A stretch of DNA of 63,267 nucleotides, filler included, from Octopus bimaculoides (Eukaryota): the NCBI RefSeq assembly GCF_001194135.2. It is 4 parts of 4 records of this genome, joined end to end, with 100 filler letters (N's around TTAATTAATTAA, not from the genome) between each part and the next. Parts side by side here need not be neighbours in the genome. Positions count along the whole stretch, not along the records: positions 27,393 to 37,014 come from NC_068986.1; positions 37,115 to 60,221 come from NC_068981.1; 2 more parts are not named here. One strand, 5' to 3'. The notes under the pieces are model-generated. The model was not told the DNA's origin. It searched no databases and saw nothing but the letters and a program-made list of their open reading frames with translations. Positions 29,691-57,100 of the stretch are shown here, piece after piece (position 1 is the stretch's first letter; every line of letters begins with the position of its first letter). A program made the translations under genes and the position numbers.

Positions 29691-30847
29691 GGCATATTCG
29701 AAATACGACTGAAACAGGTAAGACGTTAAGTATTTCAATCAATTTGGCGGTTTTGATGGATTTTATTCATCAGACACCGTGAAAAGGATTTAAGAAGTTT
29801 CGTGTTATCCAGGATATTGTTTAGACTAAATTCCCCTGCGAGTTCCAGTTAGAACATTCATTCCCGTAGCGAATAAATGTTCTAACTGATCTACAGATCA
29901 GGTTTTAAGGAAACCCTACGGGAATAAATGTACTAACTGGGAGTCGCAGGGGAACTAGGTCTAAACAATGTCCTAGATAAGATGAAACTTCTTAAATCAT
30001 TTTCGTGGCGTCTGATGAATAAAATCCATCAAAACCGTCAAATTGATTGAAATATTTTACCTTTTATCTGTTTCAGTCGTTGGACTTCGGTCATACGAAT
30101 CGACCACAGAACATATTGTTTTTTTTATTTTTTATTATTAATGCTTGGTATTTGGTTTATCGCTATTTAGCTGAACCGCTAAGCTACAGGAACATAAATA
30201 AATTTACACCAGTTATCTACCGATGGTCTACACACACACACATAAATATAAATATATAAACTGTCCGATGAACGGGAACATGAAACTCCGAGTAAGTTTT
30301 TTGTTATATTTCTGCTGCTTTTAAATTTTTCGTGGAAGGGTACGATTAATCGACAAGTATTTTATTTTACCGACCTCGAAATGATGAAATGCAAAGTTTA
30401 CCTCGGCGAGATTTGAACTCAAAACGTAAGAAACCAAAATACCGCAAAGCATTTTCTTTTTTTTTTTGTTTTTGCGAAGCTCTAACGGCTTTACCAGTAA
30501 TGGCTTATGATGTAGATACAAAGATAATAGTTTTGATGGAACAGTTTATGACTGCTATTTTATTACATCGACCCCAGGTAGATGAATGGCCAAGCTAACC
30601 TCGGCGGGATTTGAACTCAAAACGTGTAGAGCTGAAACAAATACCACAAGTAATTGTTTCCGATGCTCTACAGATTCTGTCATTCCATCGCCCGAATCCA
30701 CCCTAGTAATAATAATATACTGGGTGGATTCGGTTGGTTATATCCGTTGCTATAAAACTGAACTAATATTGGTTTCAAATTTTGGCACAAGGCCAGCAAT
30801 TTCGAGGAGGGAACAATTCGATTACAGTGATCAACTTGTTTTATCGA

Positions 30848-31232
30848 TTACAGTTCTATATTTGAGACATGAGTAATTATGTACATTATTTACATTATTT
30901 ACATTTGACGGATATTTGTCCTCATTTTGTTTGTTGTTAACACAACGTTTTGGCTGATATACCTTCCAGCCTTCATCAGGTGTCTTGAGACATATGGCGT
31001 AGTGGTTAAGAGCGTGGGCTACTAACCCCAAGATTCCGAGTTCGATTCCAAGCAGTGACCTGAATAATAATAATATTAATAATAATAATAACATTGAAAA
31101 ATCCCTTAGGAATGAGAACCCAGGTTTGAAATTTCCCCAAGCCACGTAATGAAGGCTGGAGGGTATATCAGCCGAAACGTTGTGTTAACAACAAACAAGA
31201 TGAGGACAAATATCCGTCAAATGTAAATAATG
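30848..31232 (+). mobile_element. tRNA-headed, hammerhead-bearing Penelope-type SINE (family 4), locus 1: inverted tail arm 30849-30987 plus forward copy 30989-31233
   Basis: Interrupts a family-2 SINE; TSD ttgttttatcga / ttatttaatcga (10 of 12 match) at 30836-30847 and 31233-31244. Confidence 0.85.
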
Positions 31233-32629
31233 TTATTTAATCGACCCCAAAAGGATGAAAGGCAAAGTCGACCTGAGCAGAATGTGAATTTAAAACGTAA
31301 AAATCCCGCTAAAAATTTTGCCAGGCGTGCTAACGATTCTGCTACTTTGCCGCCTTAAATTGAACTAATATCGTAAAATAATTAAAAATGGATCAACAAT
31401 TCATAATAAATATATTGGCATAAGGGTAATTTGATGAAGTATTCAGTAATACACTGTTCCGGGTTCGAGTTCTGTGTATTTGCCTGGCAAGTGACTTGCT
31501 CTGAGATATTGTGTTGAAACTGAAGCAATTATAGCATCGGTGAGTCGTTCACATTTATAAATTTGTTTTGTAAGATTCCTGATATGAAATCGCGTGTTGA
31601 AAAAGATATTGTTACATTTCGGGCGGTATTTTTTTTTTTTTTTACCAAATAAACACACGCACATTATTATTCGTTCTTCACTTCAGCTTTATTATTGTTC
31701 ATCTTTTATCTTAACTCTTTCCTCACACATCTTGTGATCTCTTTTGTGACTCTGTGGAATGGGCTAACCAGAACAGGAGGAGACACGTGGGATGGAGAGG
31801 CACTGAAGAGGCCACAGGATGTGTCACGAAAGACTTAAGACAAAAGACACAAAGATAAGAACAATAATATAGCTGAAGTGAAGAATGAATAGTGCATGTT
31901 TATTTGGCAAAAAATATGACCGTCCCGAAATATAACAATAGTCAGTTTACCCTTCTAAAAACACAAAAAGCGTTATTTTCACTTTCTGTTTTTTTGTTGT
32001 TTTTTCTTGGGGTATGAAAATTTTTGTCACATAACTACAAACTGAACTCTAACGTAGTCCCACTATTGCTTTCATTCTTTCAATTCTTCTGCTAGCATAC
32101 TTTAAATCATTTAGACAAAACTGAGTTGAGAGAAATAGCTGAGAGTGGCCAGTGGCGTATATATGAACAACTTAGATAAATACATGTATGTCAAATACTA
32201 TACAGCATAAATTCTTGATTCATTAAAATTATCTCCGCTTCTAGAGGATGTGTAATAATTACCAGATAGCAATTAATGCGAGCTTCACTTGAGAAGGAGA
32301 GATAATCTCAAGAATTAAGAATTCTTCAAAATTGACATGCCAAATGGAAAAGGAAGGCTTATGGTCTGGAGATAAGAAAACAGTCGTGGACACGTGTTTC
32401 TGACTCAGTAGCCGTCATCAGCACGACACTTGTCCAACCTTATCTCCAGCAGCCAAGTGACTTAGACTTATACAAAAAAAGAACACATTTATGACCTCGG
32501 TAATATGCATAATCTAAACAAAAATGAAGTCAAAGGAATAACTGAGAGTGGCCAAAAGACATTTGTGAGGATTTTGAGACGTTTGTTTATAAGAATGAAT
32601 CTGCTAAAAGTAAATACTTTTCTCCCGGT

Positions 32630-53714: not shown

Positions 53715-54100
53715 ACAGTCCTATATTTAAGACACGAGGAATTATTTACATTAATTTCATTATTTATATTTGACGGATATGTGTCCTCATCTTGTTTGTT
53801 GTTAACACCGCGGACATAAGGCGTAGTGGTTAAGAGCGCGGGCTACTAACCCCAAGATTCCGATTTCCATTCCAAGCAGTGATATGAATAATAATGATAA
53901 TACGAAGAAGAAGAAGATGAAGAAGAAGAAGAATGATAATAATAATAATAACATCGAAAACTACCTTAGAAAAATGTGAACCCAGGTTAAAAATTTCCTC
54001 AAGACACCTGATGATGGCTGGAGGGTATATCAGCCGAAATGTGGTGTTAACAACAAACAAGATGACGACAAATATCCGTCAAATATAAATAATGTAAAGT
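53715..54100 (+). mobile_element. Family 4, locus 3: inverted tail arm 53715-53808 plus forward copy ~53812-54098
   Basis: Perfect 12-bp TSD GTGTACTACTAT at 53703-53714 and 54101-54112; hammerhead at 54003-54048 is mutated. Confidence 0.88.
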
Positions 54101-57100
54101 GTGTACTACTATGTATGTAAATTTTAGCCTGGCTGACTGCATACAGAGCCGTGGGTACTTGCACACATACATACACACTCATACAAATACATAAGTATAT
54201 GTAAGATAATACATACGGTCAGACAGATCGATTTCAATCCTTACATTGGAATTCCTTCAGAAACTACGTTCCCTCTTCAACTAAAAATATATTGTCTATA
54301 ATATGGATGTCAGTAAATTGTGTAGACTGATTTGCATGAAGTAACACTCTTTCGCAGCTATATCGATAAGTTGATGATACATATCAGATATGATACTATG
54401 ATAGCTATAGAATAAATTTATATTAGAGCTTTAGACTGTACTAAGGTAGAAGAAAATAAGAATCAACTAATCAGCTTTAAATCATTATATTAGGTAATCA
54501 TCACTGACGGAGTATTCTCTTCAGCTGCAAACCTCCTTTTAGCATTGTTTAAAGTAGCAAATATATAATAGGTAAGGTACAGATGAAAGTAGCCTGTCTA
54601 CGATAATAGTTACTGATGTATGAAGATTATGACAAAGACAAAAAAGAAAGAACAACATGAAACAGAACCCATTTACATATTGTTGATGGTATTTAATTAC
54701 CTACAGTTGTGTAGGTTAAAACTGTAGGTTTACTCTTGTAAGTAAGGATTAGGTGTGCTCACAGAGTAGTTCATAAACAAAACATGTGATAGAGCGAAAC
54801 CCCAGACGTTTGCTTAAACTTACACCAAACTAATCATTTAGGAGAATGGAAATAAAATGTTTATATTACTCAGTAACTCTAAATATCGCTGTAGCACTCA
54901 TGTATAGCCTACATTTGTATAGCTCATTGTCGTCTTGGTACATAGATACACGAAAGCCCAATAATAGAGTAATCTTCGTATATGTTGGAAGGTATATACA
55001 TCTCACTTACAAAATATACCGAAGAATCTCCAGCTTTGTGTGTCACTCCGAACGTTCTATTAACTTCATCCCCAGGCATAGGGAAATGGTTAAGAGGATC
55101 GCTTTGCTATATCGCTTTGCTACAATTGCAACATATACTCGAGACAGTTCAAATTTTGTTTGTGGAATTCTCCAGGTGGAAACGCCTAGGATTGAATATA
55201 TTTGTAATTCAAAGACATCAGTTTTAATGTATGCATCGTGACAAGTTTTAAGATTTCTTTCTTAATACGTTAATAGCAGATGTGTATATGGATATATCGA
55301 CCACATACCATCTAAATAGGTAGCTCAGAACAGCAGGTATACTAGTCGGAGAAATGGGCAGAGATCCGTTCATTTATTTGTTTAATAAATATACATGTCT
55401 ATTCTATGCCTTTTGTCTATTTATTTTAACACCGTTGAAACAGTTTATATTACACTGACTGTTTACATTTGATATTTTCATACGAAACGTTGTAGCCAAA
55501 ATCAGTGCTGGCTATAAATTCTATAGAATATTTGTAGAAATAACCTTAACAAAGTTGTTAAATGTATTGCTTAATGAACTGGAACATGTCCCCAGACTTA
55601 TCTATTCAATAGTACACCAGTGAACTTGTACTAAACATTTCCACAGTGCTTCCCAGCTTGTGGTGCTTGGTTTACATAGTAGCCACAAGGGGAATGATGA
55701 CAATAAATGATATTGAATCTTCATTCACAATCTTCACTCTATAGTGTAGAGTGAAGTGTTTAGAGTTTGAACACTCGGCTGTGGTAGAAGAAGAGAGGTA
55801 GGCCTTTGAATGACCAAAAATATAAGCGTCCAAAGAGACTGAATGGCCTGTTAAAAATTGGTGTGATTACAACTCCTATAAAATATCGTTAACAAAAGAT
55901 TAATTAATGGAGAAAGCAAAAACATTCTCCGACTCTCTCTATCTCTCTCTCTCTCTGTTCATATATATATATATATANNNNNNNNNNNNNNNNNNNNNNN
56001 NNNNNNNNNNNNNNNNNNNNNNNNNNNNNNNNNNNNNNNNNNNNNNNNNNNNNNNNNNNNNNNNNNNNNNNNNNNNNNNNNNNNNNNNNNNNNNNNNNNN
56101 NNNNNNNNNNNNNNNNNNNNNNNNNNNNNNNNNNNNNNNNNNNNNNNNNNNNNNNNNNNNNNNNNNNNNNNNNNNNNNNNNNNNNNNNNNNNNNNNNNNN
56201 NNNNNNNNNNNNNNNNNNNNNNNNNNNNNNNNNNNNNNNNNNNNNNNNNNNNNNNNNNNNNNNNNNNNNNNNNNNNNNNNNNNNNNNNNNNNNNNNNNNN
56301 NNNNNNNNNNNNNNNNNNNNNNNNNNNNNNNNNNNNNNNNNNNNNNNNNNNNNNNNNNNNNNNNNNNNNNNNNNNNNNNNNNNNNNNNNNNNNNNNNNNN
56401 NNNNNNNNNNNNNNNNNNNNNNNNNNNNNNNNNNNNNNNNNNNNNNNNNNNNNNNNNNNNNNNNNNNNNNNNNNNNNNNNNNNNNNNNNNNNNNNNNNNN
56501 NNNNNNNNNNNNNNNNNNNNNNNNNNNNNNNNNNNNNNNNNNNNNNNNNNNNNNNNNNNNNNNNNNNNNNNNNNNNNNNNNNNNNNNNNNNNNNNNNNNN
56601 NNNNNNNNNNNNNNNNNNNNNNNNNNNNNNNNNNNNNNNNNNNNNNNNNNNNNNNNNNNNNNNNATATATATATATATATATATATATATATATATATAT
56701 ATATATATATACATATATATATATATATACACATACACACATACATATATAATTTATATATATATGCATACATATCTTTACGAACACACAATATATATTA
56801 TATATGTATAAAACATACATACTTGCCTGCATACATACATATTACATTCCTGCCAGTGAAATCGAAAGTTTTGAGGTGTGCACAATAGCGTGAAACTGCA
56901 GATAATTCATATCTCTTATAAATGTTTGCAGAATATTACGAAGTGCATAAAAAGTATATATACAACGTTTACTGGAGTAGAAGCTTTAACTATATATATA
57001 TTTCTCAAAATAATCAGAAATATATAGCCACGCAGAATCCAATAAGGTGTTCTATAAACAAGATTGAATGCAATATAGTCAGTGTACATAACGTAAAATC

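Follow-up and report, generated by a model that had tools for sequence, protein, structure and literature searches.

The stretch of Octopus bimaculoides DNA analysed here (63,267 nucleotides, filler included; hereafter the window) carries three insertions of a short repeat in which a tRNA-like head is followed by a tail with a hammerhead motif, and raises the question of which enzyme moved this repeat. An earlier note on this DNA had proposed a short interspersed element (SINE) mobilised by a Penelope-like element (PLE) rather than by a long interspersed element (LINE). The proposal is supported by an insertion signature that agrees with that of published PLEs point by point and recurs in contigs of sequencing runs and in three related families. 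We consider it probable that these are RNA polymerase III (pol III)-type SINEs mobilised by a Penelope-like enzyme.

Structure and insertion signature of the repeat

The element is an abundant non-coding repeat of ~275 nt that begins with A and B boxes and ends in a minimal hammerhead followed by a 34-nt tail. Its units are 246–286 nt long, occur as dispersed copies and have no match in Pfam. BLAST and profile searches of the 63-kb window revealed the tail at three loci only, with six arms in total and no solitary arm, in agreement with the three loci named in the earlier note. The features of these loci are as follows.

Locus 1
30836–30847: left target duplication, 10/12 identical to 31233–31244; lies in another dispersed repeat
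30849–30989 (−): inverted 5'-truncated arm, 34-nt tail at 30849–30882, hammerhead G12 mutated
30989–31232 (+): full arm with box A (30995–31005), box B (31040–31049), (TAA)n, core-mutated hammerhead (31141–31186) and short end
31233–31244: right target duplication
Locus 2
35835–35846: left target duplication, 12/12
35847–36469 (−): inverted full-length arm with short end, intact minimal hammerhead (35903–35948) and head (36412–36469)
36012–36326 (+): unrelated tRNA-type SINE that interrupts the left arm within its (TAA)n linker, with paralogs starting at 29316 and at 59872
36472–36566 (+): 10-nt tail-tip remnant (36472–36481) and 85-nt segment before the right head
36567–36840 (+): complete unit with box A (36573–36583), box B (36617–36626), (TAA)n, hammerhead (36715–36760), short-end point (36806) and 34-nt tail to 36840
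36841–36852: right target duplication
Locus 3
53703–53714: left target duplication, 12/12, last base common to the tail
53714–53810 (−): inverted truncated arm with 34-nt tail and two private variants as in the right arm
53813–54100 (+): full arm; head decayed, linker expanded, hammerhead (54003–54048) mutated at the cleavage site, short end
54101–54112: right target duplication

At all three loci (3/3), two inverted arms with their tails outwards are enclosed by a single duplication of 11–12 bp, one base being shared ambiguously with the element end. The two duplicates are identical at 10/12 positions at locus 1 and at 12/12 at loci 2 and 3, as had been claimed. Among random junction pairs (16,407 non-low-complexity trials in the window), 10/12 matches occurred in 0.12% and 12/12 matches in 0.006%, i.e. 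with chances of 0.0012 and 0.00006 per pair, respectively. Paralogs of the repeat that hosts locus 1 show the duplicated motif one time only. Also as claimed, the 34-nt extension is present on exactly one of the two arms of each locus (30849–30882, 36807–36840, and 53714–53747). The end given for the other arm requires correction at locus 3, where the short arm runs a few bases beyond AAATAATGT. Arm-to-arm identity is 85–93% across the window. Where the two arms meet, the sequence is palindromic or nearly so at loci 1 and 3, and likewise at two loci (L002 and L057) in the DNA of a second animal described below.

The head of the left arm of locus 2 (36412–36469) is that arm's own, with 17 nt lost from box A. 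The SINE that interrupts this arm, within which lies a 10-N assembly gap (36224–36233), belongs to a conventional tRNA-type family with three copies in the window (36012–36326, 29316–29685, and 59872–60221).

The distance between the A and B boxes of the family is 45 nt, the same as in a tRNA gene, and a strict pattern of both boxes matched two heads of the family and a single further SINE in the window, but none of 100 shuffled windows. All four window heads start not more than 1–2 bases from the tRNA +1 position, and both promoter boxes are mutated in the locus-3 head. A run of four T residues is absent from every sense strand of the family. As judged from these sequence features, the family is likely transcribed by pol III. 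The tRNA-like character proposed earlier for the head is indicated by the boxes and their spacing, and is not recognised by Rfam and ARAGORN, which are considered below.

The hammerhead motif comprises a 5-bp stem I, the conserved core and one additional base, a 6-bp stem II, and a helix III that is palindromic and loopless. By its predicted fold it fits the Penelope-type minimal hammerhead, which acts as a dimer (PMC4209133; this and other papers are cited for the parts of their text that were available). The descriptor matched 0/5000 shuffles of the tail and gave 0.02 matches per shuffled window. In 14 arms of four families, stem pairing reaches 87.7% and double-sided changes number 16, as compared with 80.1% and 8.0 in shuffled alignments (0/500), and slid-stem controls pair at most 51%. 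These data bear out the minimal hammerhead of the earlier note as a motif. The core is intact in only one of the five window arms that span it (35903–35948), and Rfam detected no hammerhead in the family units. In sequencing runs, C3 is kept in 93–99% of the depth and CpG decay, the catalytic G12 included, amounts to 7–14%, which indicates that a largely intact motif decays in inserted copies.

Copies in sequencing runs and related families

The unit or a part of it was present in 20 of the 24 listed runs, which came from 13 studies, and at least half of its words in 15 runs from five organisms. Contigs of four runs were aligned, two of DNA and two (X15 and X17) guessed to be of RNA; X19 and X20, whose word shares are small, did not enter the analysis, and read depth was not taken as copy number. 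In the two DNA runs, 20,049 and 21,348 contig pieces aligned to the unit. A sharp end was observed at the tail tip (36840), where 141, 145, and 14 contigs pass into AT-rich sequence that is unrelated, and at least five contigs end at the short end. Upstream of the head the depth drops ~100-fold. Strand switches account for five of the 15 joints listed from a total of 52, and four of these begin at 36567–36568, the first bases of the head. Among the listed joints is one that connects the short end with a point just ahead of the head, which suggests that some units are in tandem. A leader shared by run contigs upstream of 36558, which may be the flank of a master gene, includes a TATA-like motif ~30 nt ahead of the head.

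Scans with the tail peptide gave no confirmed loci in viral and metagenome contigs and two in genomes, the latter in animal-like contig segments binned within bacterial assemblies. Chimeric contigs of two such assemblies (G001 C52, C16, and C61, and G002 C16) each include 40–280 kb of AT-rich animal DNA and represent contamination. The sample of this second animal amounts to ~550 kb, and we infer that it is another cephalopod. No further carriers were found among 14 genomes related to G001 or among 400 related to G002. An exact 24-nt tail pattern had no matches in metagenome, viral, and genome collections, nor had a degenerate hammerhead pattern in viral contigs.

A profile search of the second-animal DNA revealed 13 arms at 10 loci. 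The related families, B, C, and D, have distinct A/B-box heads on a homologous hammerhead-tail segment that is about 70–76% identical to that of the window family. One locus of B (L047) and one of C (L051) consist of inverted arms, one of them tailed, within an exact 12-bp duplication. In family D, L048 is a single arm with an exact 12-bp duplication, and L057 has inverted arms with one tail and an unclear duplication. Of the remainder, L062 is an old inverted remnant and four further loci are apparently single-armed with no clear duplication. The signature is therefore general but not obligatory, as in PLEs themselves. The profile of the tail frame had 214 matches, and 101 of the best 150 belong to family B. 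These 101 peptides, among the matches listed, have two end points 11–12 codons apart (55 long and 46 short, a rough pattern); 11 of them are tandem and 10 are accompanied by an antisense piece.

The heads of families B and D (L011:999–1090 and L052:7986–8072) contain a long insert between the boxes and may derive from an intron-containing tRNA. The second-animal DNA also includes an unrelated, canonical-looking type I hammerhead at L068:18082 (+).

The window itself is AT-rich and microsatellite-rich, with assembly gaps. Pfam matches among 234 of its 236 listed open frames of at least 55 aa were confined to mariner fragments, which derive from decayed transposase sequences at 4614–5146 (+) and 22280–22633 (−); the single named match of one mariner frame is an Octopus protein, in keeping with an octopus-like host. 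A further dispersed repeat family occurs in both orientations (6900–7086, 8971–9158, 21096–21258, 25556–25706, and 61615–61802). At 29705–30080, adjoining a SINE end, two 165-nt inverted arms with 87% complementarity and 46 nt between them resemble a miniature inverted-repeat transposable element (MITE); no complete hammerhead was seen in them.

Proposed mechanism and alternative explanations

A PLE protein with reverse transcriptase (RT) and GIY-YIG domains would bind the 3' part of the element RNA, which resembles the pseudo-long terminal repeat (pLTR) of PLEs, and would nick both strands of AT-rich DNA 11–12 nt apart. Each nick would then prime one cDNA, with one cDNA from each of two internal start sites 34 nt apart, to produce the short end and the tailed end. 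Both cDNAs would be extended toward the template's 5' end, often as far as the first base of the head, and would be joined via short palindromes or microhomology to give two tail-out arms within a single duplication. With initiation at internal sites, the element could also dispense with poly(A), a repeat tail, and a terminator of its own. The hammerhead was likely inherited within the recognition region and would decay after insertion.

These steps have precedents in PLEs, for which inverted pLTRs, an optional 30–40-nt tail at one end, 8–10-bp duplications, and junction palindromes have been reported (PMC3846280, PMC8557442). The pLTR sequence is enough for PLE mobilisation in trans (PMC3846280). 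A Poseidon protein introduces nicks into both strands of AT-rich DNA and extends them, and begins reverse transcription at two internal sites bounding the tail; it is a predicted dimer, hammerhead cleavage is dispensable, and RNA past the start sites is required (PMC11167929). Active master copies would thus need sequence beyond the tail tip. The 85-nt segment at locus 2 is repeated elsewhere, and its 3' part (36520–36558) is present at ~1% of the head depth in the DNA runs; it is likely template sequence past the tail tip and a candidate for the corresponding part of a master.

The tail and the 85-nt segment were also considered as the start of a partner open reading frame (ORF), given one open frame and what we took to be a resemblance in motif, but this was not supported. 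The frame has no match in Pfam or PDB, and a search of Atlas with the tail frame gave no usable match. Against two PLE N-termini, the 85-nt segment ranked 415 and 1515 of 12,163 windows, and it lacks codon-position bias (16/14/15). No long PLE protein was among the best 150 of the 214 profile matches, and the best match of the tail frame is a short uncharacterised O. bimaculoides model, likely spurious. An ORF over locus 1 had no match in a homolog search, and RT and GIY-YIG domains are absent among the 234 open frames of the window referred to above. The only PLE seen, at L065:830–2400 (−) in the second-animal DNA, is 5'-truncated and decayed; it retains remnants of RT and GIY-YIG, inverted arms, and a hammerhead remnant, and lies in a TA microsatellite.

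Several observations weigh against a pol III SINE moved by a PLE. As to the partner, no RT and GIY-YIG element sharing the hammerhead-tail segment was found in the window, in the ~550 kb sampled from the second animal, or in a set of 17 PLE proteins; these proteins had no match in the window by tblastn, and the ends of the L065 element are unrelated to the family. As to the signature, the earlier statement that insertions always have two arms and exactly one tail holds for all three window loci, but in the second animal two arms are present at 5/10 loci and a clean duplication at 3/8 tested, and one D locus (L052) has tails on both arms. Moreover, within-locus identity of the arms, 93% at locus 1 and 90% at locus 2, is not above that between loci. 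As to transcription, Rfam and ARAGORN call no head a tRNA (the output of ARAGORN at a low threshold is noise), and thus the tRNA origin is deduced from the boxes and their spacing. The absence of T runs is weak evidence, as composition alone yields it in ~50–63% per element. Contigs of X15 and X17 contain both head and tail, but the RNA label of these runs is a guess and the polymerase is not indicated. About 1% of the depth extends beyond the head on its upstream side, where the shared leader with the TATA-like motif also occurs in 100, 86, and 15 contigs; hence not every template begins at +1. Finally, two of the five covariation measures for the hammerhead are no better than shuffles; the events are few and the sequences related.

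One alternative is that the family is a non-autonomous PLE derivative, retrozyme-like or a solo pLTR, that carries a tRNA-derived passenger and is transcribed by pol II or by read-through of a tandem master; it would be PLE-mobilised but not a SINE. Copies that reach upstream of the head, the joint from short end to head, the order of tail tip, 85 nt, and head at locus 2, and the tandem arrangement in 11 of the 101 family-B-like peptides listed are all in its favour, and non-LTR retrozymes (LTR, long terminal repeat) are proposed to be tandem PLE derivatives (10.64898/2026.07.22.740005). A passenger would not, however, be expected to begin where all four window heads do, near tRNA +1, with the ~100-fold drop in depth and the strand switches at the same point, or to keep A and B boxes in four families whose heads differ. 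We regard this alternative as unlikely. Mobilisation by a LINE, with inverted forms arising by twin priming or fold-back, would be the ordinary explanation for a SINE, which depends on LINEs by definition (PMC3531059); ORFs of LINEs of the apurinic endonuclease (APE) type are plentiful in the second-animal DNA, and single-armed copies with a duplication occur (L048). Yet the 3' end has neither poly(A) nor a tandem repeat, and the two fixed ends 34 nt apart are of a kind described as unique to PLEs, at least in the available text (PMC11167929). The same 3' region is repeated in both arms, unlike in twin priming, and mobilisation by a LINE is accordingly judged highly unlikely. Twin priming inverts a non-overlapping 5' part. 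The APE-type ORFs of the second animal are presumably RTE-like.

The two remaining alternatives concern the paired arms. Separate insertions, into a preferred site or into each other, would agree with the 7–10% difference between the arms of loci 1 and 2, which is as large as between loci, and an assembly gap lies within locus 2; at 3/3 loci, however, both arms share one duplication with none between them, the tail-out orientation is constant, and the locus-3 arms have two private variants in common, which makes a series of events very improbable. A MITE-like DNA transposon, with the arms as terminal inverted repeats, would account for inverted ends within one duplication, but hardly for arms of 16 to >250 nt, termini offset by 34 nt, 5' truncation of the inner ends at various points, and the existence of single arms; it is already largely refuted and is the least credible of the four. 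Two-strand priming by a PLE enzyme on a pol III transcript remains the preferred explanation.

Relation to known systems

If this explanation is correct, a PLE counterpart would complete the series of LINE–SINE and LTR–TRIMp3 pairs, and the copies, tens of thousands in number, would be available as natural footprints of two-strand priming by PLEs. Mobilisation of a high-copy, tRNA-headed family by a PLE would widen the LINE-dependent definition of SINEs, and such elements would account for a share of unclassified or mis-annotated cephalopod repeats. The origin of PLE inverted arms and tails is an open question for which the family offers a minimal template of ~275 nt: arm lengths, junctions, and shared variants across thousands of copies can be used to test the model of two strands and two start sites, and one RNA against two. 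In vitro PLE assays would likewise benefit from so compact a pol III template as substrate, in which the PLE recognition module is defined.

Like tRNA-derived SINEs, the element is shorter than 700 bp, has a head-body-tail organisation, and reaches a very high copy number; unlike them, its 3' part is pLTR-like, neither LINE-like nor a simple repeat. Ohshima and Okada reportedly described three octopus tRNA-derived SINE families in 1994, and the window family may equal a named one. As regards the SINEBase definition (PMC3531059), the family is short, non-coding, and dispersed, and lacks the simple-repeat 3' tail and LINE-type insertion. No tRNA-headed PLE-mobilised SINE was found in the literature searched (including PMC5786205, PMC4758252, PMC6962438, and 10.1101/596502), which consisted mostly of main texts open without subscription; Repbase, Dfam, and SINEBase may list the family. 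We see about an even chance that it represents an undescribed class of SINE-like pol III retroelements parasitising PLEs, a superfamily represented in octopus and in one other animal or more, formed by the repeated joining of different tRNA heads to one PLE end module.

Small-RNA-derived pol III promoters also occur in the non-LINE, non-autonomous elements known as TRIMp3 (Helenus, Ajax, and Cassandra), but these are of LTR type, with a primer-binding site, a polypurine tract, and 4–5-bp duplications, and Penelope is unmentioned in the accessible text (PMC10886601). Schistosoma Sm-alpha and Sj-alpha combine a pol III-type promoter with a type I hammerhead in a ~300-nt repeat; they differ in being tandem repeats processed from multimers and in having a canonical hammerhead, and in the available parts of their descriptions neither a mobilising partner nor a signature of inverted arms or tails is named (PMC6765202, PMC8490949). 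The octopus copies, in contrast, are mostly dispersed and bear the PLE signature. Animal non-LTR retrozymes, which one review terms SINE-like, are likewise non-coding, hammerhead-bearing, and proposed to be non-autonomous PLE derivatives, but form tandem arrays that yield circular RNAs, and the text available describes neither a tRNA head nor an internal pol III promoter (PMC7761336; 10.64898/2026.07.22.740005). For the octopus family, no tandem arrays are present in the window, and elsewhere there are hints of tandems in a minority. Non-autonomous Chlamys PLEs such as MRC1 are likewise PLE-mobilised and have 3' ends as in their partners; they belong to the Chlamys clade and are without the canonical hammerhead, and a tRNA head is not mentioned in the accessible part of their description (PMC8557442).

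The closest likeness is to endonuclease-positive (EN+) PLEs (Penelope/Poseidon and Neptune), with which the family shares the minimal type I hammerhead, in which helix III is palindromic and one additional base precedes stem II (PMC4209133), as well as the inverted 5'-truncated arm, the 30–40-nt tail at one end, the short duplication, AT-rich targets, and junction palindromes (PMC3846280, PMC8557442, PMC11167929). Unlike these PLEs, the octopus element of about 275 nt has no ORF, and thus none with RT and GIY-YIG as in an autonomous PLE, and has a tRNA-type A/B-box head at its 5' end. The element behaves as a non-autonomous PLE would and has the architecture of a SINE, and the family is possibly a distinct class.

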